In this document: positions 1,656 through 43,127 of the stretch, one piece after another
How positions within the stretch are numbered: the stretch's first letter is position 1
Layout of the letters: the number at the start of each line of letters is the position of its first letter
Assembly (NCBI GenBank): GCA_963682135.1
Contig: OY821645.1
Span: forward strand, 1,312,001 to 1,376,000
Source: Methanothrix sp.
Lineage (GTDB): Archaea; Halobacteriota; Methanosarcinia; Methanotrichales; Methanotrichaceae
Length of the DNA: 64,000 nucleotides
Direction of reading: 5' to 3'
The notes under the pieces: model-generated
What the model was told of the DNA's origin: nothing
Databases searched by the model: none
Seen by the model: only the letters and a program-made list of their open reading frames with translations
Made by a program: the position numbers and the translations under genes

Positions 1656-2840
1656 TTAAGGTCCCGGATAGATGACCTCGATATTCTCCATGTTCAATAT
1701 CAGCTTGCGCAGTTCCTCGCAGTTTATGGGATGCTTGAACTCGCTGCACATCTTCACCCGTTCTGATAGATCCCCCAACTCCTTGTCCTTTAAATAGTAG
1801 CCCATTCTCTGGGTGATGTATTTTAGAGCCTTGGCTCCGGTGTGCTTGCCTATGATGATGTGCCGGGCAGCGCCCACCATTTCCGGCGAGTAGAGCTCAT
1901 AGGTCCTGGGCTCTTCCAGAACAGCAGCTACATGAATTCCGGATTCATGAGCAAAAGCATTGCTGCCCACCACGGCTTTATTCTTAGCTACCGGAACCTC
2001 TGAATAGGTCTCCACCAGCTTAGAGAGGTCTTTTACCTTAGTGAGATCGTAAGAATTCAGGTCATAATGCAGCCTTAAGGCCACCAGCAGCTCTTCTAAA
2101 GGCGTGTTGCCGCTGCGCTCTCCGATGCCGTTTACTGTAGTGTGCAGTTGCTTTGCCCCTGCTTCCGCGCCTGCCAGGGTATTGGCCAGGGCCATTCCCA
2201 GGTCGTCATGACAGTGCATGCAGATGGGGATTTTGACAATTTTTTTCAGCTCGCTTATCATGTAATATGTCGTGCGCGGATTCATAATCCCCACAGTATC
2301 GGCGACGCTGATATAATCGGCATGGTAATCCTCTGCCTTCCTGTAAAGCTTCTTTAGAATCTCAAAATCGGTGCGCGTGGCATCTTCAGCCGAGAAGCGC
2401 ACAATCAGGCCATGATCTTTGGCATACTCCACCGTTTGCAGTGCGCAAGAAATCGCCTCGGGACAGCTCATGTGCAGCTTATACTTGAGATGAAGGTCAG
2501 AGGTAGCGATGAAGACGCTGACCATGTCGGCTCCGCATTCGATGGCAGCGTCGACATCCTTCTTGACGGACCGGCAGAGAGCTGAAATCTTGGCATCAAG
2601 TCCCAGATTGCAGACCTCTTTTACGGCATTCATCTCTGCTGCGGATACGACAGGAAAACCGGCTTCTATGACCTCGACACCGATCTCATCCAGCCGCAAG
2701 GCAATATCCAGCTTTTCATCGGCGCGAAAGACTACACCCGGCATCTGCTCACCGTCGCGAAGGGTTACATCGCATATCTCGATGTCCAGTGGCGGTGTCT
2801 TAGCTAATGCCAAGAATTGATTGAGGGAGTAGTCTTGCAT
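1656..2840 (-). CDS. homocitrate synthase / isopropylmalate synthase family protein (AksA-like, probably coenzyme B 2-oxoacid elongation)
   Basis: DVTLRDGEQ, HCHDDLG, GIGERSGN and FAHESGIH DRE-TIM motifs; no LeuA regulatory domain. Confidence 0.85.
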   Translation of the reverse strand: MQDYSLNQFLALAKTPPLDIEICDVTLRDGEQMPGVVFRADEKLDIALRLDEIGVEVIEAGFPVVSAAEMNAVKEVCNLGLDAKISALCRSVKKDVDAAIECGADMVSVFIATSDLHLKYKLHMSCPEAISCALQTVEYAKDHGLIVRFSAEDATRTDFEILKKLYRKAEDYHADYISVADTVGIMNPRTTYYMISELKKIVKIPICMHCHDDLGMALANTLAGAEAGAKQLHTTVNGIGERSGNTPLEELLVALRLHYDLNSYDLTKVKDLSKLVETYSEVPVAKNKAVVGSNAFAHESGIHVAAVLEEPRTYELYSPEMVGAARHIIIGKHTGAKALKYITQRMGYYLKDKELGDLSERVKMCSEFKHPINCEELRKLILNMENIEVIYPGP

Positions 2841-2905: not shown

Positions 2906-4231
2906 CTAGAGATTGGCAAAACGTTCCAATATCCATCTGTTTCGCACTTCAGGATGGAATAAGATACCATAAGTAGGATGAGCGGCGTGCTGGAAAGCCA
3001 GGGCCGCATCAGCTCTTCCTGCCAGGAGCGATAATCCCTGCGGCAATGTCACTGCATAGTTATGAAGGTGATAGCCTTCTATCCGCCGCGGCTCGCCCAG
3101 CAGTGGCGAGGCCCTGAAGATCTCGATCTCTTCCAGGCCAATAGCTCGATTTTGCACAATAGATCCTCCATAGACGCTGCCAATTACCTGCATCCCGGCA
3201 CAGATGCCCAAAATGGGCTTTTTTGAATCCTTTATCCAGGAGAAGAGAGGCAAATGCTCGGCATACTCATTATCGAGCAGAGCTGTTCCGCAGAGGATAA
3301 TCTTATCGTAGCTGGCAAGCGCTCGCAGCGTGACCTCTGTATAATGCAGAATTTCGCAGAAGAATCCTGCCTGCATCAATGTATCTCTAATGGGATGGAC
3401 AAATTCGTAATGAGATAGGCAGCCTCTTTCGAAGCACAGGTCAACCAGGAGTATGCGCCTTGCGCGGGGCACTATTTTCGCTGAGTTTTGTCCGACGTCG
3501 CCAGGATTTTCTTCACCAATTTCAGGACTTTCAGGAATTGCCAACCCTGCCGGCTTCTCCACCAGACGCATCTCTTCTATGACAAACTGCCCTCGATAGT
3601 TGGCAAAGCTCTCGGATGCCTTCATGATCTCGATTCTCTTCTGGAAGAATGGAGCATCCAGGACGAAGGTCTCCAGCTCCCCACCCTCTCCGGAAGGATT
3701 TATGCGGTATTTTTTCTCGAGCTGCTCGAGCATCCGTATGCGCTCCTCCGTCAACTCTGCGCCCAACCAGGTGGCATCAAAGGGATAGGCATAGACTCCA
3801 GAGATGATGATGGAAAAGTTTTCCTTTAAAAGCCCTCGGAGGTAAGCGATCTGATTTGTCTGCCAGAGAGGATTATAGCACCAGAGATTCTGGCTGCGAC
3901 AGATCCTTTGCACGCGGGCCGCCTGGTAGACAGACTCGATGGCACCGGTGACTATTCCCTGGATACCATATCTTTCACGGGCTGCATCAATTGCCGCCGA
4001 CAGGTCCGTAAGCTCCTCTTCTTTGATGCCGTGCGTGGGCCAGGTGAGCAGCGGAATGCCCATGGCCTTCGCCTGCAGGCCGGTGCGAGCAATGTTGGGC
4101 GTATGGAACATGTAGCTGTCCGGATTCTGCGAGACCAGAGTTATCAGGCAGGCCACCTCGTTTCTTTCCAAAGCCCGGCGGCAGGCAAAGACTGAATCCT
4201 TGCCGCCTGAGAAGAGCACGCCCAGTTTCAT
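2906..4231 (-). CDS. diphthine--ammonia ligase (Dph6/DUF71 ATP pyrophosphatase) family domain fused to a class I glutamine amidotransferase domain
   Basis: N-terminal LFSGGKDS PP-loop, SYMFH, GAIESVYQ and GEGGELETFV; a Pro/Glu-rich linker; C-terminal LGICAGMQ and FHPE (Cys-His-Glu triad). Confidence 0.85.
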   Translation of the reverse strand: MKLGVLFSGGKDSVFACRRALERNEVACLITLVSQNPDSYMFHTPNIARTGLQAKAMGIPLLTWPTHGIKEEELTDLSAAIDAARERYGIQGIVTGAIESVYQAARVQRICRSQNLWCYNPLWQTNQIAYLRGLLKENFSIIISGVYAYPFDATWLGAELTEERIRMLEQLEKKYRINPSGEGGELETFVLDAPFFQKRIEIMKASESFANYRGQFVIEEMRLVEKPAGLAIPESPEIGEENPGDVGQNSAKIVPRARRILLVDLCFERGCLSHYEFVHPIRDTLMQAGFFCEILHYTEVTLRALASYDKIILCGTALLDNEYAEHLPLFSWIKDSKKPILGICAGMQVIGSVYGGSIVQNRAIGLEEIEIFRASPLLGEPRRIEGYHLHNYAVTLPQGLSLLAGRADAALAFQHAAHPTYGILFHPEVRNRWILERFANL

Positions 4232-4282: not shown

Positions 4283-5788
4283 CTACGGCGCACCTGGCGA
4301 ATCCAGGTCGAGCATCCGCCAGATCTTCGCCATATCCAAGCTTGCCTCTACAGCCGCGGCCAGCTGCTCAAAGCCATCTCCCTTCGCCGCCCTAGCCCCC
4401 AATTCAGTCTCGTGAGATGAGCCCATGCCCCGGCCCTGACCGAGACCTTTGCGACGACTGAGAAAATCGAGAAAAGCATTGCGGAAGCTTTCATTCTCGA
4501 AGAGGCCATGCAGGTAAGTGCCGATCACCATTCCACTCTCAGATACAGCGCCGTCGTCATCAAAGGCCTTCTGGCCCTTGGGGCTGGTCACGCCCATGTG
4601 AATCTCGTAGCCCGTGACGATTTGGCCGCGGATCGGCTCCAGGATGGGGCCGCCGCCCGTGACGACCTTTTTCACCTGCACTGTCCTCTTCTCATAGAGG
4701 TCGAAGCGGGTCACTGCATCCAAGAGACCGAGTCCGGGGATAGTCCCTGCGCTGTCCTCGACTCCGCTGTCGATGATCTCTTGCCCCAGCATCTGGTAGC
4801 CTCCGCAGATGCCGAGGACGGGGGTATCAACGCAGGATTTTATCTGATCGGCCATGCCCTTTTCCTGCATCTCCCGCAGATCTGAGACCGTGTTCTTGGT
4901 TCCGGGTATGATTATCGCATCCGGATGGCCCAATGGCTCGGAGAGGTTCACATAGCGAACGTGCGCCTGTCGTTCCAGGGGCTCGAAGTCGGTGAAGTTG
5001 CTGATGCGCGGCAGCCTGATCACGGCAATCTCGATCGCATCTGCCGCAGCAGAGCGGGCCTTCTTGTCACCCAAAGAGACAGAGTCCTCGGAGGGGATAT
5101 TCAGATCGAGATAAGGCATGACGCCCAGCACGGGCACGCCGGTGAGCTTTTCCAGCGTCTTCAGGCCGCTGCCTAAAATAGCAGGATCGCCCCGGAATTT
5201 GTTGATCACAAGGCCCTTTACGAGTGGCCGGATGTCCTCAGGCAAGAGCTGCACCGTGCCGAAAAGGCTGGCAAAGACGCCGCCCCGCTCGATATCCCCT
5301 ACCAAAATTATGGGGGCATTAAGGCGGCGAGCCACGTAGATATTGGCTAGGTCCCTATCGAAAAGATTGATCTCTGCCGCTCCGCCCGCGCCTTCTACTA
5401 CGATGTAGTCGTAGTCCTTCTCCAGCTCTTGCAGGGAGCGGTCCACTACCACCTTGAGATCATCGATATCTCGATAGTACTCCTCTGCCGATTTGTCAGC
5501 CATAGGCTTGCCCAGAACGATGACCTGGGAGGTGCGGTCGCCCTTGGGCTTGAGGAGGATGGGATTCATGAACTGCGTCGGCTCCACCCTGGCCGCCCAA
5601 GCCTGCACCGCCTGGGCGATGCCGATCTCCGAGCCGTTTTGGGTGACCCAGGAGTTGAGGCTCATATTCTGGGATTTGAAGGGCGCAACCTTCAGGCCGC
5701 GATCAGAGAGCAGGCGACAGAGGGCCGCAACAAGAGTGCTCTTGCCGGAATGGGAGGTGGTGCCGAGGACCACGATAAAGCGAGACAT
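4283..5788 (-). CDS. cobQ: cobyric acid synthase
   Basis: GTTSHSGKS, PFKSQNMSLNS, EGAGG, DIERGGVFA, ISNFTD, GICGGYQMLG and GTYLHG motifs. Confidence 0.95.
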   Translation of the reverse strand: MSRFIVVLGTTSHSGKSTLVAALCRLLSDRGLKVAPFKSQNMSLNSWVTQNGSEIGIAQAVQAWAARVEPTQFMNPILLKPKGDRTSQVIVLGKPMADKSAEEYYRDIDDLKVVVDRSLQELEKDYDYIVVEGAGGAAEINLFDRDLANIYVARRLNAPIILVGDIERGGVFASLFGTVQLLPEDIRPLVKGLVINKFRGDPAILGSGLKTLEKLTGVPVLGVMPYLDLNIPSEDSVSLGDKKARSAAADAIEIAVIRLPRISNFTDFEPLERQAHVRYVNLSEPLGHPDAIIIPGTKNTVSDLREMQEKGMADQIKSCVDTPVLGICGGYQMLGQEIIDSGVEDSAGTIPGLGLLDAVTRFDLYEKRTVQVKKVVTGGGPILEPIRGQIVTGYEIHMGVTSPKGQKAFDDDGAVSESGMVIGTYLHGLFENESFRNAFLDFLSRRKGLGQGRGMGSSHETELGARAAKGDGFEQLAAAVEASLDMAKIWRMLDLDSPGAP

Positions 5789-5945: not shown

Positions 5946-6302
5946 CTAAGCTTTTACCGATTTTTTCCTCCAGCGCCAGTTTATTTCTGGTTCTACCCCC
6001 CATCGCATCATAAATTCTTTAGCAGAAATTGGAGGTTCGCCATTAGCCGAAACCCATCCCCCAGGCGTAAATCCAGCCGGTTGCCTTTGTTCAGGACCGG
6101 TCCAGGGCACGCACTTATAGGCATTATCCAATTCTCCGGGGGTGACCGACCCGTCTCCAAGCGAAATATATCCGCAATTTCCGCATACTAATATAACTTT
6201 TTTTCCTTGTTTTATTCTATCCAAGATTTTTTGGCGTGGTACATCCTGAGTGGAGCCACAAGATGTATTATTGCACTTCCAAGTATAATTTCCCTCTACC
6301 AT
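5946..6302 (-). CDS. hypothetical protein with putative zinc-binding Cys pairs
   Basis: 118-aa ORF with CNNTSC and CGNC motifs, an AT-rich upstream region, and no competing plausible ORF. Confidence 0.6.
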   Translation of the reverse strand: MVEGNYTWKCNNTSCGSTQDVPRQKILDRIKQGKKVILVCGNCGYISLGDGSVTPGELDNAYKCVPWTGPEQRQPAGFTPGGWVSANGEPPISAKEFMMRWGVEPEINWRWRKKSVKA

Positions 6303-8613: not shown

Positions 8614-9047
8614 GTCTGCTCCCTCGGAATGGTCAGTACTGGAATCTTGGAGCTTCTTACCACCTTTTCGGCTACACTGCCCAGCAGGAACTTATCAAGA
8701 CCACTGCGCCCCACCGCACCCATGATGATAATATCCATGCCATTCGACTGCGCATAGCTTACGATCTCGCTGCCGGGATTTCCCTCAACCACGACGCCCT
8801 CAGAGGCAACGCCCATATGCTTGGCCAGCGTTTCCACATGTTTCAAGGCCTCTTTTCCTTCCTTGAGCAGAAGCTCTCGAATGCTGAATAGCAGCATATC
8901 ATCCGGCAGATGGCTCGTCCGATTGGTGTCTGCTACATAGATTGCAGTAACCTTTCCGCCTGATATCTTTCCCAGCTCCAATGCCACTTTGGCAGCCCTT
9001 AATCCGTGCTCTGATCCGTCGGTTGCAACTAGAATCTTCTCAAACAT
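8610..9047 (-). CDS. universal stress protein (UspA family)
   Basis: KILVATDGS and MGAVGRSGLDKFLLGSVAEKVVRSSKIPVL. Confidence 0.93.
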   Translation of the reverse strand: MFEKILVATDGSEHGLRAAKVALELGKISGGKVTAIYVADTNRTSHLPDDMLLFSIRELLLKEGKEALKHVETLAKHMGVASEGVVVEGNPGSEIVSYAQSNGMDIIIMGAVGRSGLDKFLLGSVAEKVVRSSKIPVLTIPREQT

Positions 9048-9056
9048 GATTAACCC

Positions 9057-10112
9057 CTAAAAGATAGCTATTATGTCAGATTGTCCGGCCCTTCTCACAA
9101 TGCTGGAAAGAGACGACATGGATCCCCACATATTATCGGATTTTTTATCTATAACCATCACTCTTGCCTCTTTTCCTTCCCGAATGGACCCCAGCCTCTG
9201 ATCAAGCCCAGTCACTTTAGCACCATTTAGCGTGCACATCTTAAATACCTGTCTATCGTCATGCAGCAGAGCCTTGCTGATGAAATGCATCTCCTCAAAG
9301 ATGTCCGGCGAGTTCATCATAACATTATCCGTTCCCGCGGCAACGGTGATGCCTAAATCTAACATTTTTTTCACATTGGGCAGACCTACGCCGGTAACCA
9401 GATTTGACCTGGGACAGACGACGACTGGAATGCCGGCGTGGGCCACGTCCCTCAGATCCGCCTCTTGCGCCCTATTCATATGCACCAGGAAATCCGGATG
9501 GAGGGCAAGAGCTGCGCCAATATCATCATTACCGGCTTCGCCGGCGTGCACGCCTACCGCCAGGCCCCTCCGTCTAGCTGCCGCCACTGCCGCTCGAATA
9601 TGATCCGGATCATGGTCTCGAGTGCTGCTTATTCCCAGGCCCCAGCAATTATCCGGGCTATTTATCAGGCCGGGACCTGGCCGCCCCAGGATTCTGGCAA
9701 TAAGAGGCAGACCGAGCATGGCCTCTTGCAGCATACTCACGCCCTCGCCACCTCCTTCCCTAAAATCAGCAAAAGCACATGTGCCGGACGCAGCCATCAA
9801 TTGCAGGCTTCTTCTCATACCTTCCAGGAGGGCGGAGCGCGGCATTTGGGCTAGCTTTTGTGCCTTCAATCCACCGGGACCTACCAACTCAGAAAGCGGC
9901 AAAAAGGGAGGGTCCTTGAATGCGGAGTCGCCCACATGGACATGCGCATTCACGAAGCGAGGGCAGACAATGCCCTCATAGTCTGCATCTACATGCTCAG
10001 AGCCAAACTCCCGGATGATGCCGTCCCGGATGCAGATATAGCCGTCCAGTGGTGTGAAATCATCGCCATAGATTATGGTTCCTTGTAGCAGGATCTCGCG
10101 TGCCTCTGGCAT
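9057..10112 (-). CDS. metal-dependent amidohydrolase/deaminase family protein
   Basis: NAHVH, HAGE, LVHM, CPRSN, GTDN and TLNGA motifs. Confidence 0.85.
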   Translation of the reverse strand: MPEAREILLQGTIIYGDDFTPLDGYICIRDGIIREFGSEHVDADYEGIVCPRFVNAHVHVGDSAFKDPPFLPLSELVGPGGLKAQKLAQMPRSALLEGMRRSLQLMAASGTCAFADFREGGGEGVSMLQEAMLGLPLIARILGRPGPGLINSPDNCWGLGISSTRDHDPDHIRAAVAAARRRGLAVGVHAGEAGNDDIGAALALHPDFLVHMNRAQEADLRDVAHAGIPVVVCPRSNLVTGVGLPNVKKMLDLGITVAAGTDNVMMNSPDIFEEMHFISKALLHDDRQVFKMCTLNGAKVTGLDQRLGSIREGKEARVMVIDKKSDNMWGSMSSLSSIVRRAGQSDIIAIF

Positions 10113-34176: not shown

Positions 34177-37035
34177 ATGAAAGCTTTGATAAAATTCGTT
34201 ATCGGATTTCTTCTGATAGCTTTTCTGGTTACAGGTTCTTTGGCGGCAGAAGAGAAGACATCGAAGCAAGTTCTAATTCTTGCCTCCTATAATCTTGGGA
34301 TGAAATGGGATGACAGCATTATCTCCGAGATAAAGCATCAATTTGCGATTTATAAGCCTTCAGCAGTTATCAATGTCGAATTCATGGATACAAAGAGGAT
34401 TGATCCAAATGCAACCCGTCTGGCTGACTTGAAAGCATTGTATCTAAAAAAGTATAATGGCAGGCACTTTGATGTAATCATTTCCATCGATACCGACGCA
34501 TTCCAATTCTTGCTCAATAACCGCGATGAGATTTTTCCGGGAACGCCGGTAGTCTTCTGCGGCGTTATCAGCTTCGAAGATGAGATGCTGCGAGGAAAAC
34601 GCAATTTCACGGGCGTAATGGAAGTATTCGATATCAAGGATACAATTTCTTTGATGCTCAAATTGCATCCCCATACGAAGCTTATTGCTATTGTAAATGA
34701 TAATACATCGACCGGTCAGGCTAATCGAAAGATCATGGATGCTGCGATTCCAGAATTAGAGGGCAAGGTATCTTTTGAGTACCTTGACAACCTCACAGCA
34801 GAGGAGCTTGCGAGGCGTGTCCACTCCCTGCCTGATGACAGCCTCATCTTGGAGATGACCTTTAATCGTGACCGGAATGGAAAAGTATTGACTTATGAGG
34901 ATACGACAAGCCTCATCCAAGGAGCAAGCTCTGTTCCAATTTATGCTTTATGGGATTTCTTCATAGGATATGGTATTGTCGGAGGAAAGTTGCTCACGGG
35001 ATCGTCTCAAGGAAGCGAGGCAGCAAAGCTTGCGCTGCGCATCTTAGAGGGAGAAAAGGCGGAAAATATTGCAGTAGTTAGAGAGAACTTCAACCGCTAC
35101 AAGTTTGATAATTTTGAGTTGATTCGTTTCGGCATTCCCGTCTCCAGCTTACCCGCAGACAGTGTGATAATTAACCGGCCATTCCAATCACGCGTTGATC
35201 TCAGTGGCACAAACCTGAGCGGCCTTAATATATCCGGAGCCAACTTAAGCCGCTCACAGCTGCAAAATACCAATCTGGAAATGACGAACCTCAGCGAATC
35301 AGTGCTGGAAGGATCTGAATTGGGCGATGCCCGACTTGTGAGAACCATCTTCAGAGGAGCAACCATGGATGAGACCGACATTGATGGATCCGATCTGTCT
35401 TTTGCCGACCTGGATGGTGCAATTCTTGTCGGATCTGACATCGCCGGCTCGAATCTGACCGGTGCCGACCTGCGAGGAGCAGACCTGAGCCAGGCCCGTT
35501 TGACCAATGCGATTCTTGCAGGAGCAAATCTGGATAATGCCAACTTGACCGCAGCCAATCTTCCGGATGCAGATCTAACCAAAGCTTCCTTTTTCAGAGC
35601 TTATTTGAGGCGGGCTAACTTATGCAGTTCGCGACTAATGGATGCTAACCTTTCCGAAGCAGATCTCGTGGGGGCTGCCCTGATAGCTTCTGAAATGACA
35701 GGCGCCAATATTTTCAAGGCCAACCTGGAAGAGGCGAGAATGTCCGGCGCAAGATTGATTGATGCAAACCTGGGTGCGGTCGATCTTATGGCCGCCAACC
35801 TCAGCACCTCCAATCTGACAGGTGCAAACCTGGCCGATGCCTACATGAGAAGGGTTATGCTGAGGGATGCAATACTGAAGGGCGCCAATCTATCGATAGC
35901 TGACATGGTTGGGGCTAACATGATTGATGCTGATCTTTCGGATGCAGAATTTTATGGGGCTGATATCTCAGAGAGTCGCTGTCATGGAGCAAAGTTCGTC
36001 GGCTCTCGATTAATCAATTCTCAAATTCGGTTTGCTAACCTGACTTATACGAACTTCAGCATGGCGAACCTCTCTGGATCGGATCTTGCGTCATCCAGTT
36101 TGGAAGGCTCCGATCTCTCTAGAGCTAACCTTTCAAGGGCAAATCTCGAAATTGCCTATATGCACAATGCTAACCTTGCCGGAGCTGATCTTTCCGATGC
36201 CAGCCTGCCAGGAGCGCATCTGGAAGATTCCGACCTATCCAGCACGAATCTTGAAAACGCAGATCTGACCAATGCATTGCTGGGCGGATGCAACCTTACT
36301 GGTGCCAATCTGAATGGAGCCAGGCTTCTTGGTGCGGATCTTAGCCTGGCAATCATGAATGATGCACAGATGACCAGGACAAATATGATCGGTGCCAAAA
36401 TGAGCTGGGCGGATCTGAGCTGCAGCAGTCTTACCGATTGCCAGTTCACCAGAGCGGAGCTTTTTGGAGCCAACCTGAGCAACTGCGACCTGACCGGTTC
36501 GGACTTCACCCGGGCATATTTAGTGAGAGCTAATCTATCAGGTTGCACTCTGAAAGATGTCAACTTGGATTACGCCGACCTTACCGGAGCGAATCTGAGA
36601 AATGCCCGAATAAATGGGGCCAGACTCGCAAATGTATTTCTAAACGAAGCGGACCTATCGAACGCGGACCTCACGGGTTCTTATCTTTATGGCATGACTC
36701 TGAAGGATACTGTTTGGAGCAAGGCGAACTTGAGGTCGTCCAGCATAATTTTGCTGAACTTTTTGGATGCTGATTTCAGCGGCAGCGACCTGCGAAAGAC
36801 CCGTTTTGCCCAGACCTATATGAATAACACCAACTTCTCCGATGCGGATCTGAGTGGCGTTGTCTTTGACACCTGCGCCTTCGAAAACTCTGATTTTACA
36901 GGCGCCAACCTGCAAGAAATCAAATACGATTCCACTGCGCTTAATTTTTTCGCGGCGTCCAAACTCGAAGGGGCCAAGATAAGCGCAGATCTGAAAAATG
37001 ATCTAGAAAAATTGCGGTCAGGAAAAATAGCCTGA
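34177..37035 (+). CDS. secreted protein: ABC substrate-binding/sensor-type domain fused to ~600 aa of pentapeptide repeats
   Basis: Signal peptide; VLILASY, EFMDTKR, PVVFCGV, GIVGG and FGIPVSSLPADSVIINRP; then continuous A(D/N)Lxx repeats. Confidence 0.85.
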   Translation: MKALIKFVIGFLLIAFLVTGSLAAEEKTSKQVLILASYNLGMKWDDSIISEIKHQFAIYKPSAVINVEFMDTKRIDPNATRLADLKALYLKKYNGRHFDVIISIDTDAFQFLLNNRDEIFPGTPVVFCGVISFEDEMLRGKRNFTGVMEVFDIKDTISLMLKLHPHTKLIAIVNDNTSTGQANRKIMDAAIPELEGKVSFEYLDNLTAEELARRVHSLPDDSLILEMTFNRDRNGKVLTYEDTTSLIQGASSVPIYALWDFFIGYGIVGGKLLTGSSQGSEAAKLALRILEGEKAENIAVVRENFNRYKFDNFELIRFGIPVSSLPADSVIINRPFQSRVDLSGTNLSGLNISGANLSRSQLQNTNLEMTNLSESVLEGSELGDARLVRTIFRGATMDETDIDGSDLSFADLDGAILVGSDIAGSNLTGADLRGADLSQARLTNAILAGANLDNANLTAANLPDADLTKASFFRAYLRRANLCSSRLMDANLSEADLVGAALIASEMTGANIFKANLEEARMSGARLIDANLGAVDLMAANLSTSNLTGANLADAYMRRVMLRDAILKGANLSIADMVGANMIDADLSDAEFYGADISESRCHGAKFVGSRLINSQIRFANLTYTNFSMANLSGSDLASSSLEGSDLSRANLSRANLEIAYMHNANLAGADLSDASLPGAHLEDSDLSSTNLENADLTNALLGGCNLTGANLNGARLLGADLSLAIMNDAQMTRTNMIGAKMSWADLSCSSLTDCQFTRAELFGANLSNCDLTGSDFTRAYLVRANLSGCTLKDVNLDYADLTGANLRNARINGARLANVFLNEADLSNADLTGSYLYGMTLKDTVWSKANLRSSSIILLNFLDADFSGSDLRKTRFAQTYMNNTNFSDADLSGVVFDTCAFENSDFTGANLQEIKYDSTALNFFAASKLEGAKISADLKNDLEKLRSGKIA

Positions 37036-37225: not shown

Positions 37226-38284
37226 TTGAAATGCGTCTCAATGGCAATTCTTTGTGCACTTCTCCTGGTTGGCTTTACTGGAGCTAGCGGTGGTACAGCA
37301 AATAATAGCACCTCAGAGAAGAACAAGCTGAATGTGACTCTGCTCGATTTCGGCCCGATTGGAGACCACGGCTGGACGTACGAGGCCCACACAGGCGCAT
37401 CGGAGATGGCCCAAGAGCTATATTTTGTCAACCTATCCGAGAGAGAAAATGCCGCAGGTCCCGGTGCATCCCAAATTTTAAGGGATTACGCGAAGAATGG
37501 AGCGGAGCTGATATTCTGTCACAGCTACAACTTCATGGATGCCATCAAAGAAGTAGCTCCAGAATACCCGGATGTCGTTTTTATGTGGGGAGGCGGTACG
37601 CATAAGCTGGCGCCCAATGCGGGAGTCTATTACGAAAGGATTTATGAGGCCCAGTATCTTGCCGGAATCGTGGCGGGCAATATGACCAAGACGGGAAAGA
37701 TTGCATTTGTGGCTGCATTGCCCACATCCCAGGTGATAATCGGCATCAATGCCTTTGCTAAAGGTGTGGCATCCTCCAATCATCGCGCCAAAGTGTACGT
37801 AGAGTGGATCGGAGACTGGTATGATCCCGGAAAAGAGCGGGCTGTAGCCTTATCACTTATCAATAAAGGCTGCGATATCATAACCCACTGGTCCGATTCC
37901 GATGCGACGGGTCAAACGGCGGATGAGATGGGCACCTACTTCATATCCTTCGGCTCAGATGTCGGCAGGTTCTCTCCTCAGGTATATCTTACGGGCGCAG
38001 TCTGGAACTGGCAGCCCATTATGACCGATATTGCAGAATCTGTGCATAACGGGACGTGGGATTCTCACCCAGGACAGGAGTGGTGGTACGGACTGGCAGA
38101 AGGTGGAGTAGAGCTGGCACCTTTTGGCGACAAGGTCCCTGACAGTGTTCGATCTTTAGTAGCCGAAAGGCAAAAGGATATTGTGCAAAAAAATTTGACA
38201 ATATTCCCCGGCCAGAGTGATGAAGAGCTAAAAGAGATGTATTACCTCGAACCTAATGTTGTGGGCAAGCTGCCAAAATCATAG
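37226..38284 (+). CDS. BMP-family (PnrA-like) substrate-binding protein
   Basis: GPIGDHGWTYEAH, YEAQYLAGIVAG..TKTGKIAFVA and INAFAKG, WYDP. Confidence 0.88.
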   Translation: MKCVSMAILCALLLVGFTGASGGTANNSTSEKNKLNVTLLDFGPIGDHGWTYEAHTGASEMAQELYFVNLSERENAAGPGASQILRDYAKNGAELIFCHSYNFMDAIKEVAPEYPDVVFMWGGGTHKLAPNAGVYYERIYEAQYLAGIVAGNMTKTGKIAFVAALPTSQVIIGINAFAKGVASSNHRAKVYVEWIGDWYDPGKERAVALSLINKGCDIITHWSDSDATGQTADEMGTYFISFGSDVGRFSPQVYLTGAVWNWQPIMTDIAESVHNGTWDSHPGQEWWYGLAEGGVELAPFGDKVPDSVRSLVAERQKDIVQKNLTIFPGQSDEELKEMYYLEPNVVGKLPKS

Positions 38285-38388: not shown

Positions 38389-40155
38389 ATGAATATTTCT
38401 TTGATGCGATTGGTTCTATGGTTGTGTTTGCTTCTCACACTTTTAACTATTATTTCATCTGCAATCGTAGAAGATCCCATCAAATTAAAAGATCATCTCC
38501 GGCTTATCGGCGCGAACCTGAGCGGCATGAACTTGTCCGGGGCCCATCTGAATCATTCCGAGTTGCAAGGATCTGATCTTCGCAAAACGAACCTCAGTAG
38601 ATCCTATTTGAACCAATCCAGTCTCTTTGATGCCCAGCTTGTAGAGGCGAACCTCAGCGGAGCAATTTTGGTAGATGCTGACCTTCATGGCTCCGATCTC
38701 TCCCAGGCCGACCTCAGGGGTGCCAATATGCCCATCTGCAATTTATTTGCCTCAAATCTGACGGAAGCAAACCTTTCCGGCACCTTCTTGGCGGGTTGCT
38801 ACTTAACAAGCTCTAATTTAAATCGTGCAAACCTATCTGGCTGCTTTATGGATCAGTCTTTTGCGGATCGTTCAATTATGATTCGTACTAAACTGAATAA
38901 AGCCAGCTTAGGGGGCGTGAAAATGAGCGAAACGAACCTGAGCGAAGCCAGCTTCATAAGGGCGTTCATGGATCGTTCCACATTGCGCCGTTCTCTATTG
39001 ATTGGTGCCAATCTGACCGGCGCAAGCCTGATTGGGGCGAACTTGATTAATGCCACCATATCCAACGCAGATCTCAGCGGTGCGGATCTATCTGAGTCGC
39101 GCTGCTCAGGAGCGAATTTTGTTAGATCTCGGCTGGTTAAATCAAGAATGGGTTTTACCAACCTGACCGGCTCAAACCTGAGCCATGCGGACCTGACCGG
39201 ATCGTATCTTATGGCTTCCTGTCTGGATGGCAGTGATCTCTTCCAGGCAAATCTAACAGGCGCGAACCTGGAAAATGCTTTAATGCATAACGTCAGACTT
39301 GTTGAAGCCAGACTAACCGACGCAATTTTTGCCAGAGCGCATTTAGAGGATGCTGATCTATCTAATTCATATCTTGAACATGCAGATCTTACCGGTGCCT
39401 TGCTCAGCGGGTCTAATCTGACGGATGCCCATCTGTCGGGGGCCAGGCTTCTTAGCGCAGACCTCAGCCTTGCAGTCCTGAAAAGCGCAGATCTTAGCGG
39501 AGCAAACCTGGTAGGTGCCAGATTAAATTGGGCGAATCTGGCAGGAAGCACACTCAAGCGTTGCCAATTCTCCAGAGCAGAGCTATTTGGAGCCGACCTG
39601 AGCCACTGTGACCTCAGCGACTCGGACTTCACCCGGGCATATTTGCCAAGGGCCAAATTGCAGGGGTCCAACCTCAGAAACACAAAGATAGACAATGTCG
39701 ATCTCAGCGATGCGAATATGTCCGATGCTGATCTTGCGGGCGTCCAGATCGTTAAGGCGGATCTGGATGATGCTAACCTATCCGGGGCGAACCTGGCCGG
39801 ATGTAGCATGCAGTCCATGAACTTAAGGGGGACCGTCATGCAAAAAGCTGTATTGAGATCAGCAAGCTTCAATTGGATGATACTTAATGAGGTTGATCTT
39901 CGGGGTGCAGACCTCAGAAATGCTAAATTTGATGCGGTTTTTCTGGAAAATGTGAACCTCTCCGGGGCTGACCTAAGAAATGCAGAATTTAATAAGTCCG
40001 CGCTGGTAAATGTAGATCTGAGCGGAGCGAATCTCGTGGGAATGAAGTATGATCTGGTGGAACTTCCCTTTATTGCCAGCTCAAAACTAGATAACGCCCA
40101 AATGAGTGCTGAAATGAAAAAGGACATTGAAAAATTGAGGGCAGGAAAAGACTGA
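38389..40155 (+). CDS. secreted pentapeptide-repeat protein
   Basis: Signal peptide followed by ~530 aa of A(D/N)Lxx repeats; the C-terminal cap is shared with 34177..37035. Confidence 0.88.
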   Translation: MNISLMRLVLWLCLLLTLLTIISSAIVEDPIKLKDHLRLIGANLSGMNLSGAHLNHSELQGSDLRKTNLSRSYLNQSSLFDAQLVEANLSGAILVDADLHGSDLSQADLRGANMPICNLFASNLTEANLSGTFLAGCYLTSSNLNRANLSGCFMDQSFADRSIMIRTKLNKASLGGVKMSETNLSEASFIRAFMDRSTLRRSLLIGANLTGASLIGANLINATISNADLSGADLSESRCSGANFVRSRLVKSRMGFTNLTGSNLSHADLTGSYLMASCLDGSDLFQANLTGANLENALMHNVRLVEARLTDAIFARAHLEDADLSNSYLEHADLTGALLSGSNLTDAHLSGARLLSADLSLAVLKSADLSGANLVGARLNWANLAGSTLKRCQFSRAELFGADLSHCDLSDSDFTRAYLPRAKLQGSNLRNTKIDNVDLSDANMSDADLAGVQIVKADLDDANLSGANLAGCSMQSMNLRGTVMQKAVLRSASFNWMILNEVDLRGADLRNAKFDAVFLENVNLSGADLRNAEFNKSALVNVDLSGANLVGMKYDLVELPFIASSKLDNAQMSAEMKKDIEKLRAGKD

Positions 40156-40869
40156 TCAGGATTCATCCCGCATCGGTCCCAGCTCTTCCACCACTCTGTC
40201 CAGGAACTGCTCCATCAGGCCTTGAATCTGAGAAAACTGCTCCGCATGAGCCGACAACTCTACCGGCCTATTCACATACGGCCCCTCTGTCAGCTCATCA
40301 GCGCAGTTTTCGAGCAGGTGATCGATGCTGTCGCGGGAGGATTCCAGATGAAACTGCAGTCCAATTGACTTTCCCTTGACAAAAGCCTGGTTTATGCAAG
40401 CCCGGCTCTCTGCCGTTCGCACCGCGCCGGGAGGAATCTCGAAGGTGTCGCCATGCCAGTGCAGGGCCACAAATCTCAGCGGCAGAACTGAGAAGAGAGG
40501 AGAGGCAATGCCCTCTTTTGTAAGGTCGACCGGGAACCAGCCAATTTCCCTGTACCCGTTTCTCCGCACAATGCCACCCAGCACATCAGCCATAAGCTGA
40601 GCGCCCAGGCAGATGCCGAGAACTATCTTGTCGCACGCAATGGCATGACGGATGAATTCCTTCTCCCTCGCTAGCCATGGGTATTTGTCGTTTTCGTAGA
40701 TATTCATGGGCCCACCCATGATTATCAGCCAGTCGAATTGATCCATTTCCGGCAGCGCCTCATCCAAGAACAGCTGCGTGCGGGTTAGATCATGGCCGCG
40801 GGACTTGGCCCAGCTCTCGATGTTGGCCAGGTCTTCAAAGGGCACATGTTGAAGGTAGTGAATTTTCAT
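40156..40869 (-). CDS. class I glutamine amidotransferase (GMP-synthase-like, stand-alone)
   Basis: LQHVPFE, MGGPM, LGICLGAQL, WHGD and QFHLE. Confidence 0.9.
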   Translation of the reverse strand: MKIHYLQHVPFEDLANIESWAKSRGHDLTRTQLFLDEALPEMDQFDWLIIMGGPMNIYENDKYPWLAREKEFIRHAIACDKIVLGICLGAQLMADVLGGIVRRNGYREIGWFPVDLTKEGIASPLFSVLPLRFVALHWHGDTFEIPPGAVRTAESRACINQAFVKGKSIGLQFHLESSRDSIDHLLENCADELTEGPYVNRPVELSAHAEQFSQIQGLMEQFLDRVVEELGPMRDES

Positions 40870-40898
40870 GGAGAACACCCTGGAGATTGCTTGCAGTT

Positions 40899-43127
40899 TT
40901 ACTCCAGGAATGTAAATTCCATTGCCCACTTGTTCAACCTGCCCACATCCCTTTGCTCCAAATCAGTCACCCGCAATATCCAGTTGCCGTTCAAGAGCTG
41001 GCCCTTGAATCCCGCCAGATCGGCAACATCCTTTGCCTCAAAAGTCCTTACAATATCTGGTTTACCGCTACCTGCGGCATTGTGAAGTACGGCCCTCTTT
41101 CCGCCAGGTGAGAATAACTCCACCCTCAGATCGCTGACATAATTATGGCTGATATCAACGCTCACCTTGATGCTCTGCACCACACCTACCCTCTCCACCA
41201 TTATGGCATGGCCAATTCCAGTCGGGTCTGCATCGGGTATATCCAGATTGGGTGAGGCATCATAGCTCGCCGAGCCAGTCGTAGCCTCAAGATCCAGCTC
41301 TATTGACCATCTATTCAGCTTACCGATGTCTATCTTGGCCAGATCGGCTACCCAAAGTGTCCAGTCTCCCAGGGAAGGCTGGCCCAGGAATGCTTTCAGC
41401 TCCTGCTTGCTTATGCAGTCGTAAGTTGCTATCAGGTTATCCTTGCTGCCGCCCTCGCGATTATGCAGCACTGCCCTCTGGCCGGATGGAGCGATGAGCT
41501 CCGCTTTCAGGTCTCCAATGTAGGTATGTGTAATATCCAAAGAGACTCGCATGGCACTGATCTTGCCATTCATAGAAAGTGCGATGACGCTGGATACGCC
41601 CTGCGGATCATTATCATTGATCAAGGCAGCCGCTACTACCTCTCCCCGGGCAACTTTTGCTGATTTAACCGGCCCCGTTCTGAAGCTGATTACCGGGCCC
41701 GGTTCACCGATATTCGAGATGGTCAGTCCCGACTCGGAGAGGTCCCACATGCAGGAGGAGGGCAGCGTGTCATGAGATAAGGCAAGGCCATCGATTCTAC
41801 CAAAGAGGTCCGATGCATCACCCTCATTCCTATTCTTCTCCAGGTCCAAATGCCCATCCGCCTGAAGCAATCCGCATTGGTAATGATGCTCCGGCGTTCC
41901 GCCTTGCCATTCATTTGAGCCGAAGATATCGCAGTGGTAAACGGCCAGGCCGCTGGAAGGAAGATATTCGTCCAGCCCCAGAGTGCTGCGGTTCTCCACA
42001 ATGAAATATTCATTTTCATTGTCCGTTTTGTAGATCAATACGCTGCCATAGTCGCCATGATTGGCCTGATACTCCTCTGCCTCATTCAAGCTCACTACAT
42101 TGTCGCACCAACCAGCCAAATTGCGCAGGTATGTGCATATTGGTGCAGGCGTCTTTCCGTTATCAAGATGATTTCCATAGCTCATCAGGCAATAACTGCC
42201 CATACCGGCGCTGCTTTGGAAGTCGCCATCGCGTTTGCCATAATCGTAAAGATCCGGCAGGCGGCAGAGCATATGGGCGTTCTCGTGACAGAAGGTGCCG
42301 ATGGATAGCTGCGTCTTGTCGTCTCCCAGGCCGGTGAGCATGTAGAAGTAAGCTCTCATATTGCCCAACATCATGTTGATGATGCCATTGTGCGGCCAGA
42401 TGTAGTCGCCCTGGTATAGCGATTTGCCGGCATAAAGAATGTTAATGGCATCAATATAACCCTCACTCTTGCTATCGAATTGCAGTAAGTTAATGCCGGT
42501 ACGCGCTGCCGCTTGCAGCGTCTCCTCGACTAACGGATGCTCTACGTAATACTGCTTCTCGTGACTGAGGGTTATGGGGCCGATTACCACATTGGAATAG
42601 TCGAGCTTTCCGGAAGACATCATAAGGAAATAATCTCGTACTGAACAAAAATTCCCGTAGCTGTTATACCCCTGCGTATTCAACATATCGGAAACGTCTG
42701 CCGGAGTTATGGAGGTCTTGATATCCGAGAATGAAACGAGAATGGTCAATCCCAATACTTTTCCCTGATGGACCCTTCGTCCCTCCAGCAATCCCATATT
42801 TCTGCCCAGAACGCGATAGGCTCCATCTCGGCGGGCATAATTGCGGGCAAATCTCTCCTCGAATTTAGAGGCTATAACCTCCTGCGACTCCCTGAGATGC
42901 CTTTTCACTCCGGACGGTGGGTCCTGGTGCAAAGGAACACCGGTTGAGATCAGCATCCCACCTAGCAGGCGAGCATAGGTGTACAGACCCATCTCCGGGT
43001 CATAGATCACCGAGTAACCATTGTCGTCTTCCTGATAGCTGTAAAACTCATCACCAAAGACAGTTAGCCGGATCTGCGGTCCGTTCCTTTGGGGAAAGAA
43101 CAGCGACTCCCCAAGTATAGCGCTCAT
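40899..43127 (-). CDS. M6-family (immune inhibitor A-like) metalloprotease with two C-terminal proprotein convertase P-domains
   Basis: HENAHMLCRLPDLYD, CLMSYG and EYFIVENR; two repeats of DI(T/S)H.Y..DL..EL..P.G ... G.W.L.V.D....D.G.LN.W. Confidence 0.88.
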   Translation of the reverse strand: MSAILGESLFFPQRNGPQIRLTVFGDEFYSYQEDDNGYSVIYDPEMGLYTYARLLGGMLISTGVPLHQDPPSGVKRHLRESQEVIASKFEERFARNYARRDGAYRVLGRNMGLLEGRRVHQGKVLGLTILVSFSDIKTSITPADVSDMLNTQGYNSYGNFCSVRDYFLMMSSGKLDYSNVVIGPITLSHEKQYYVEHPLVEETLQAAARTGINLLQFDSKSEGYIDAINILYAGKSLYQGDYIWPHNGIINMMLGNMRAYFYMLTGLGDDKTQLSIGTFCHENAHMLCRLPDLYDYGKRDGDFQSSAGMGSYCLMSYGNHLDNGKTPAPICTYLRNLAGWCDNVVSLNEAEEYQANHGDYGSVLIYKTDNENEYFIVENRSTLGLDEYLPSSGLAVYHCDIFGSNEWQGGTPEHHYQCGLLQADGHLDLEKNRNEGDASDLFGRIDGLALSHDTLPSSCMWDLSESGLTISNIGEPGPVISFRTGPVKSAKVARGEVVAAALINDNDPQGVSSVIALSMNGKISAMRVSLDITHTYIGDLKAELIAPSGQRAVLHNREGGSKDNLIATYDCISKQELKAFLGQPSLGDWTLWVADLAKIDIGKLNRWSIELDLEATTGSASYDASPNLDIPDADPTGIGHAIMVERVGVVQSIKVSVDISHNYVSDLRVELFSPGGKRAVLHNAAGSGKPDIVRTFEAKDVADLAGFKGQLLNGNWILRVTDLEQRDVGRLNKWAMEFTFLE

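Follow-up and report, generated by a model that had tools for sequence, protein, structure and literature searches.

A stretch of 64,000 nucleotides from Methanothrix (Methanosaeta) sp. (assembly GCA_963682135.1, contig OY821645.1, positions 1,312,001 to 1,376,000; this whole stretch is hereafter called the window) carries a gene in which a Dph6-type PP-loop domain and a class I glutamine amidotransferase (GATase) domain are encoded as one chain. The gene is best read as that of a single-chain, glutamine-hydrolysing diphthamide synthetase, with a probability of about 0.6 in our estimation. This reading is based on the identities of the two domains, an intact catalytic triad, a genetic coupling conserved among relatives, repeated fusion and a predicted domain interface that includes the triad residue Glu428; from these we infer diphthine on elongation factor 2 (EF-2) as the substrate, the glutaminase activity and the transfer of ammonia. 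A first-pass annotation of the same DNA had proposed, as one of two possibilities, a glutamine-dependent diphthamide synthase. Domain identity, pairing with a GATase and predicted docking all agree with that proposal, the activity being its conditional part. The features of the gene are as follows, in window positions.

2906..4231, minus strand: whole fused Dph6-linker-GATase open reading frame (ORF), 441 residues plus stop
3554..4231, minus strand: Dph6 PP-loop domain, residues 1-226 (TIGR03679, matches to 2d13 and 3rjz, fold)
4193..4210, minus strand: PP-loop SGGKDS, the ATP pyrophosphatase motif, residues 8-13, conserved without exception throughout alignment A1 (38 fused proteins)
3668..3688, minus strand: EGGELET, residues 182-188, the Dph6-type EGG(E/D)xE motif with the catalytic Glu
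3455..3553, minus strand: linker of 33 residues (227-259), rich in Pro, Glu and Gly (composition, model confidence and junction comparison)
2909..3454, minus strand: class I glutamine amidotransferase domain, residues 260-441 (PF00117)
3194..3208, minus strand: nucleophile elbow GICAG, residues 342-346, with Cys344, followed by M347-Q348
2948..2956, minus strand: His426-Pro-Glu428 of the catalytic triad (FHPE being residues 425-428)

The reading frame is uninterrupted and its start, MKLGVLFSGGKDS, is that of the homologues. Pfam assigned PF01902 (Diphthami_syn_2) to residues 1-222 (E = 1.6e-58, 198 bits) and PF00117 (class I GATase) to residues 276-430 (E = 5.8e-19, 68.9 bits for a cutoff of 22.8). 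The description given by the first-pass annotation was thereby borne out: all motifs that it named are present, including SYMFH (residues 39-43) and GEGGELET (residues 181-188), the GATase domain retains Cys344, His426 and Glu428, and the linker, announced as about 30 residues of Pro/Glu type, has 33 and is also rich in Gly.

The N-terminal domain (residues 1-226) passes the NCBIfam equivalog TIGR03679 for archaeal diphthine-ammonia ligase (273.2 bits, cutoff 197.3), an activity classified as EC 6.3.1.14. Its solved homologues are PH1257 (2d13, E = 1.6e-49) and PF0828 (3rjz, E = 1e-48), and its predicted fold matches 2d13 (PH1257) and 3rk1 (PF0828) with a template modelling score (TM-score) of 0.95, normalised to the target. 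The PAB0415-family model, which we take to represent the second, B12-linked DUF71 copy of Pyrococcus type, gave 49.9 bits for a cutoff of 250. Family DUF71 divides into Dph6 proper, with the motif EGG(E/D)xE188, and a B12-linked subgroup with ENGE(F/Y)H (De Crecy-Lagard et al. 2012, PMC3541065). The window protein displays EGGELE at residues 182-187, followed by T188, and the ENGE(F/Y)H signature is not present; alignment to 3rjz places E188 of PF0828 at E187. On the basis of a modelled interface, nine PF0828 residues (S44, Y45, E78, Y103, Q104, A149, E183, E186 and E188) were proposed to contact EF-2 or diphthine (PMC3541065), and all nine are kept in the same alignment, as S39, Y40, E73, Y102, Q103, A148, E182, E185 and E187. 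The complete set of 18 checked residues was common to 72 of the 81 aligned Dph6 parts. As judged from these sequence comparisons, the N-terminal domain is of the Dph6 type and not of the B12-linked DUF71 type.

The C-terminal domain belongs to the class I GATases. Its closest solved relatives are glutaminase subunits of archaeal GMP synthetases, both by sequence (2d7j, E = 1.7e-11) and by fold (2a9v, TM-score 0.80, normalised to the target). It fails the equivalogs for GuaA subunit A (59.3 bits for a cutoff of 198 with NF001975 and 58.6 for 172 with TIGR00888), and no model of NCBIfam release 20.0 was passed by this domain. A family profile built from 30 members (alignment A3) was searched against 1.84 billion protein representatives: 11388 proteins were retrieved at E<=1e-3 and only 278 at E<=1e-30. 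The best 150 family representatives, all at E<=7e-45, comprised 144 stand-alone proteins of 125-261 residues and six fused ones of at least 400 residues. Residues E276, P280, H390 and R430 are invariant in the family. Stand-alone members currently bear public names such as 'GMP synthase-like glutamine amidotransferase', 'GMP synthase subunit A', 'hypothetical protein' or 'gamma-glutamyl-gamma-aminobutyrate hydrolase family protein'. The profile data indicate a distinct GATase family. In several archaeal phyla its members appear as dedicated partners of Dph6, either joined to it in one chain or encoded by the next gene downstream.

A second class I GATase is encoded in the window (40156-40929, minus strand, 257 residues). 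It stands alone, gives 193.6 bits with PRK07053 (cutoff 250) and falls by score outside the Dph6-partner family (47.6 bits with the GMP synthase subunit A model). Its gene overlaps the end of that of a 742-residue M6 metalloprotease-domain protein (40899-43127, minus strand).

Genomes were scanned with the patterns SYMFHTPN and [NST][PL][STA]GEGGE[LIF]E. This yielded at least 599 stretches, at least 586 of them encoding relatives; the best 80, ranked against the full-length fused query, were kept and assigned to classes with two hidden Markov models cut from alignment A1. The nearest one, from a Methanothrix sp. metagenome-assembled genome (MAG), is 94% identical to the window protein over residues 1-441. 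Among these 80 loci, 17 encode both domains in one fused ORF, 58 show a Dph6 ORF followed by a separate GATase ORF and five contain Dph6 alone. The split pairs consist of a Dph6 of about 226 residues and, directly downstream, a GATase of about 180-200 residues. At 49 of the 58 split loci, the GATase start overlaps the Dph6 stop by 4 nucleotides (ATGA or GTGA), which is the mark of translational coupling, and the remaining nine have gaps of -22 to +153 nucleotides; one locus tallied among the 58 (L011) appears broken. Split pairs were found in Methanotrichaceae and Methanomicrobiales (Methanothrix harundinacea, Ca. Methanocrinis, Methanoculleus, Methanoregulaceae, Methanolinea and Methanofollis), as well as in Bathyarchaeia, Woesearchaeota, Aenigmatarchaeota, a Hadarchaeota MAG and a 'Thermococci' MAG. 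The fused arrangement was seen in Methanothrix proper, Methanomicrobium and an Aenigmatarchaeota-like pair. The first-pass annotation had envisaged that relatives might always encode two unlinked genes; they do mostly encode two genes, and these are tightly linked. When homologues of the full protein were listed (120), 96 carried both PF01902 and PF00117 in a single chain, one of these being encoded on a 3.0-Mb contig; the remaining ones were 19 proteins with Dph6 only and five GATase-containing fragments.

A tree of concatenated Dph6 and GATase parts (74 rows, 405 columns, IQ-TREE quick) was calculated, leaving out L011 and L032 (truncated GATase) and the five Dph6-only loci, and was rooted at midpoint for drawing only. 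The fused forms fell into three clades apart from one another, every one of them embedded among split forms. The distribution of both states over the tree needs at least three changes, at least two of which are forced by starred branches, suggesting that fusion to Dph6 arose at least two to three times. The Methanothrix fused group, with 13 rows including the window, had a support of 91 in the Shimodaira-Hasegawa-like approximate likelihood ratio test (SH-aLRT). Since 144 of the best 150 family representatives are stand-alone proteins and the fused clades are nested among split ones, the split arrangement is probably ancestral; the root of the tree is not established and this order of events is deduced from that distribution. 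It is worth noting that one MAG (JAQVZT01, Methanothrix sp. STF2_18) contains two fused loci, L001 and L009, respectively 94% and 70% identical to the window protein and both lying between an upstream cobQ and a downstream HMGL-like gene. They seem to come from two Methanothrix populations placed in one bin and not to be paralogues.

Regarding copy number, no second DUF71 gene was found within the 64-kb window. The Methanoculleus loci among the best 80 all have a partnered Dph6, M. marisnigri itself not being among them. A single DUF71 gene per genome is listed for Methanoculleus marisnigri, Methanoregula boonei, Methanosphaerula palustris, Methanospirillum hungatei and Methanoplanus petrolearius, and likewise for Methanosaeta thermophila (Table S1 of PMC3541065). 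Because of this listing and of the consistently partnered Methanoculleus loci, the partnered Dph6 is probably the sole Dph6 of such Methanomicrobiales, at the level of genus or order.

The whole chain was modelled with AlphaFold2 at a mean predicted local distance difference test (pLDDT) of 90.2 and a predicted TM-score of 0.89, both domains being confident despite a disordered linker. Docking of residues 1-226 against residues 255-441 scored 0.90, the best control reaching 0.08. In the benchmark for this score, 116 of the 157 solved complexes came up to this mark, as did 2 of the 215 mismatched pairs; these counts are only approximate here, the docking having used its own 38-row alignment A1 for each part. 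Three runs agreed in at least 98% of contacts, with a partner pLDDT of at least 92. On the GATase side, the predicted interface comprises E276, P280, 317-319, 364-366, 387/389/391 and 428-430. Residues 317-319 lie by Gly315, 387/389/391 flank His390, and 428-430 include the triad Glu428 and the invariant Arg430, while E276 and P280 are invariant and specific to this GATase family. The Dph6 side consists of residues 19-24, 94 and 101-126, next to Ser100, Tyr102 and Gln103. This prediction supports a binding of the two domains to each other. A fold search of the PDB returned no entry aligning to both domains (the longest alignment covered about 230 columns), hence no Dph6-GATase complex seems to have been solved and the PDB offers no template for this interface.

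These elements lead to the following putative mechanism. With ATP bound at its PP-loop, the N-terminal Dph6 domain would adenylate the diphthine carboxylate on EF-2 and turn it into the amide, diphthamide. Glutamine would be hydrolysed in the class I GATase by Cys344, with the participation of His426 and Glu428, and the ammonia released would cross a fixed interface between the domains to reach the active site of Dph6, as it passes from the glutaminase to the PP-loop subunit in archaeal GMP synthetase.

Conservation of the catalytic residues argues in part for glutamine hydrolysis as the main task of the partner. The set G315/C344/H390/H426/E428 is complete in 61 of the 75 partners, the window protein having it as well, and in one more partner the triad is kept and Tyr replaces His390. 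The Cys nucleophile is present in 64 of the 75, including two truncated sequences. Gln348, the last residue of GxCxGxQ, helps bind glutamine in class I GATases; 59 of the 64 Cys forms have it and the 11 others all lack it. The nearest solved relatives are true glutaminase subunits of GMP synthetase.

Several observations weigh against the glutamine-hydrolysing synthetase. The Cys nucleophile is replaced in 11 of the 75 partners, by Ser in nine and by Gly in two, and Gly stands for Cys in 5 of the 38 fused proteins of alignment A1. The nine Ser forms are mostly of the Methanoculleus type GISSG, with two from Methanotrichaceae, and three of the nine also lack His426; the two Gly forms belong to Methanomicrobium mobile (L042, an isolate genome) and to a Hadarchaeota MAG (L036). 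As these Cys-less variants keep the remaining invariant residues, the partner may have a role beyond glutamine hydrolysis. The GATase also seems dispensable: a Methanothrix MAG (L038) has the same gene order as the window (chlorohydrolase-Usp-CBS-cobQ-Dph6-HMGL-like) without the GATase, 78 nucleotides separating Dph6 from the next gene. Since this locus keeps the synteny of the window, the partner can be lost, and the locus is orthologous across its fused, split and partner-less states. Because of this same relative, Dph6 alone presumably still works with free ammonia, the GATase being an accessory. A further point is that solved GMP synthetases are distant relatives of both parts, so that the docking result may partly reflect a likeness to these known structures. 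A second Dph6 may also exist in the genome under study, two DUF71 genes being listed for Methanosaeta concilii GP6 (Table S1 of PMC3541065). Finally, ranking against the full-length fused query favoured GATase-bearing loci, and the shares of the three states among the best 80 are not archaea-wide.

The foremost competing explanation, which we consider possible though doubtful, is that the GATase-like module is a dedicated Dph6 subunit with a main role other than the supply of glutamine-derived ammonia. Such a subunit might activate Dph6 structurally or allosterically, assist the docking of EF-2, or hydrolyse another bond, for example an ester of the diphthine intermediate. Removal of such an ester is the role of Dph7 in eukaryotes. 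The Cys-less partners are the basis of this proposal: the nine Ser residues lie in a G-x-S-x-G context, accompanied in six cases by His and Glu, and all 11 variants are still adjacent or fused to Dph6 with their interface and other invariant residues kept. Moreover, the predicted interface borders residues 101-126 of Dph6, close to Y102 and Q103, two residues proposed to face EF-2 or diphthine. Against it stand the full residue set of the window protein and of most partners, the nature of the nearest solved relatives and the distribution of Gln348. Because this residue accompanies nearly all the Cys forms (59 of 64) and is missing from every variant, decay of glutaminase function in some lineages fits better than a new common function, and the pattern suggests such a decay. 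The 11 variants represent only a few independent events. In addition, we know of no evidence for a methyl ester made by archaeal Dph5.

The GISSG clade groups Methanoculleus and unnamed Methanobacteriota MAGs (L053, L055, L057, L060, L065, L071 and L072), and six of its seven members keep His and Glu. High-ammonia digesters are a known habitat of Methanoculleus; to connect ammonia in the habitat with loss of the Cys would be speculation.

An extended version of the subunit proposal appears improbable to us. According to it, the GATase-like protein would be an obligatory second subunit of archaeal diphthamide synthetase, with a conserved role that goes beyond ammonia donation; in the Ser/Gly lineages it would work on the EF-2 side chain itself, as a hydrolase (removing an ester, for example) or as an activator. 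To our knowledge, archaea have no identified enzyme for a Dph7-type step, and such a role, if true, would fill a gap in the diphthamide pathway of archaea.

The gene neighbourhood was considered with respect to a different substrate. Two genes flank the fused ORF.

4283..5788, minus strand: cobQ (cobyric acid synthase), 51 nucleotides upstream (TIGR00313, 601.8 bits)
1656..2840, minus strand: HMGL-like, homocitrate-synthase-like gene, 65 nucleotides downstream (PF00682 and PF22617)

The first-pass annotation had named both flanks: cobQ stands, and 'AksA-like' holds as a likeness only, the downstream gene scoring below every NCBIfam cutoff. It had also left open a PP-loop amidotransferase with another substrate, cofactor amidation in particular. 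In that case the PP-loop domain would amidate another carboxylate, such as that of a corrinoid or other cofactor intermediate, instead of EF-2. We judge this quite improbable. It draws on the proximity of cobQ on the same strand and on a Methanothrix MAG (L037, 2108-6253) in which the cobQ, dph6, GATase and HMGL-like genes each overlap the next by 4 nucleotides, forming a tightly coupled four-gene operon of apparently unrelated functions. It can also invoke the link of one DUF71 subgroup to B12 salvage and the listing of two DUF71 genes for M. concilii (PMC3541065). The distribution of neighbours speaks otherwise. A cobQ gene occupies position -1 (once -2) at 18 of the 80 loci and an HMGL-like gene position +1 (once +2) at 22, all of them in Methanotrichaceae or MAGs within that clade. 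Outside Methanotrichaceae, the neighbours are varied (radical SAM, histidine kinase, SbcCD, SerA-like dehydrogenase, ABC ATPase/transporter, AMP-binding enzyme), and the 23 representatives annotated for neighbour clusters that recur included no cobalamin genes outside this clade. Neither a B12 transporter nor cbiB adjoins the gene in the window, and CobQ bears a GATase_3 domain of its own. A cofactor link through cobQ and the AksA-like gene was therefore rejected, the synteny being confined to Methanotrichaceae and including a locus without GATase. Other substrates in general are disfavoured by the EGGELE motif without ENGE(F/Y)H, the nine kept EF-2-contact residues, and a Dph6 equivalog score above its cutoff as opposed to the 49.9 bits obtained with the PAB0415-family model. 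As for the diphthamide reading itself, dph2, dph5 and EF-2 genes were looked for beside the pair and none was found among the same 23 representatives, so that the neighbourhood gives no independent link to diphthamide.

Other observations on neighbouring genes can be added. In the window, a Cys-rich ORF of 118 residues with two CxxC pairs (CNNTSC...CGNCGY) lies just upstream of cobQ (5946-6302, minus strand); it had no match in Pfam or NCBIfam and may be a small zinc-ribbon protein or no gene at all. At L018, from a Methanotrichaceae MAG, an IS605 OrfB/TnpB-type gene with a Cas12f1-like TNB domain (8638-9750, plus strand) lies directly upstream of dph6, and a similar gene adjoins the dph6-GATase pair at L065.

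The junction between the domains was compared with the split relatives. In these, Dph6 ends with ...RLVEK, its stop lies inside aaATGA and the partner starts with MILLVDLCYEK. In the window, ...RLVEK226 is followed by the 33 linker residues PAGLAIPESPEIGEENPGDVGQNSAKIVPRARR (227-259), then by ILLVDLCFER, with I260 as its first residue, at the start of the GATase; the linker thus occupies the site of the ATGA stop/start overlap. It is predicted to be disordered (pLDDT below 50 for residues 234-255) and its length is hypervariable among the fused homologues of alignment A1. A sequencing or assembly error deleting the stop between two overlapping genes is hardly credible as the origin of the fusion: a single indel in the ancestral-looking 4-nucleotide overlap could merge both frames, and L011 looks like a broken copy in a long-read MAG, but the in-frame linker is extra to the fused form and absent from split ones, which excludes a simple frame merge, and the fused architecture recurs at 17 independent loci of the best 80 and in 96 of 120 listed protein clusters from several sources, the fused Methanothrix sequences forming one tree group (13 rows, SH-aLRT 91). 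The Pfam accession PF28410.1 was present on all Dph6-containing matches of the protein collection. Judging from fragments that carry it, it seems to cover about residues 170-250, i.e. the C-terminal part of Dph6 or the linker.

The remaining genes of the window are typical archaeal or methanogen genes. They include two very large pentapeptide-repeat proteins (34177-37035, plus strand, 952 residues; 38389-40155, plus strand, 588 residues), whose genes flank that of a BMP-family ABC substrate-binding protein (37226-38284).

The data point to a dedicated class I glutaminase subunit, the gene of which overlaps dph6 in many genomes of Methanomicrobiales, Methanotrichaceae, Bathyarchaeia and DPANN. 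Should the activity be confirmed, a glutamine-hydrolysing diphthamide synthetase would represent a new activity class and the annotation of the whole stand-alone partner family would be corrected. The Cys, Ser, Gly and partner-less forms would then offer a natural series for the gain and loss of an ammonia-channelling partnership. What is new here is the pairing of Dph6 with a class I GATase, widespread and unannotated; the principle of glutamine-dependent PP-loop amidotransferases is known.

Subscription journals aside, no description of a class I GATase partner of Dph6 was found in the full-text literature. Dph6 has been described as ammonium-using (PMC3585130). Passages of Narrowe et al. 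(2018, PMC6143161) on archaeal diphthamide synthesis treat it as the work of Dph2, Dph5 and Dph6 only and mention no amidotransferase. The main text of PMC3541065, in which the terms 'GATase' and 'Methanosaeta' do not occur, left the ammonia source of Dph6 open, suggested that domains fused to Dph6 might provide it, and noted only fusions to AsnB and, in eukaryotes, to RidA.

The window protein can be compared with known systems. It shares fold, PP-loop, EGGExE motif and EF-2-contact residues with Dph6 proteins (yeast YLR143W, PF0828 in 3rjz/3rk0/3rk1 and PH1257 in 2d13), whereas known or solved Dph6 proteins stand alone or, in eukaryotes, bear RidA-like domains (PMC3541065), in place of the class I GATase fused here. 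With the B12-linked DUF71 subgroup (PF0295-like, near btuCDF/cbiB) it has in common the PF01902 superfamily and a cobalamin gene, cobQ, as neighbour; it differs by its Dph6-type motif and EF-2 contacts, and by a cobQ synteny that is lineage-specific. The AsnB-DUF71 fusions of Methanohalophilus, Methanosalsum and 'Ca. Nanosalinarum', proposed as a source of glutamine-derived ammonia for Dph6 (PMC3541065), are likewise cases of a Dph6 gaining a glutamine-hydrolysing domain by fusion. In their case, however, the GATase is unrelated, of class II (Ntn-type) and N-terminal, and comes with a second PP-loop domain, that of Asn synthetase. More generally, glutaminase and synthetase are genetically coupled, fused or adjacent, as in the glutamine-dependent PP-loop amidotransferases GMPS, AsnB and NadE. 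A further parallel is the two-subunit archaeal GMP synthetase (PH1346, the MJ GATase, Ta0944m), by the same logic of a small class I glutaminase, fused or a subunit of its own, in the service of a PP-loop adenylating amidoligase. The window GATase is not an orthologue of GuaA subunit A, its partner is Dph6, and the predicted substrate is a protein side chain rather than xanthosine monophosphate.

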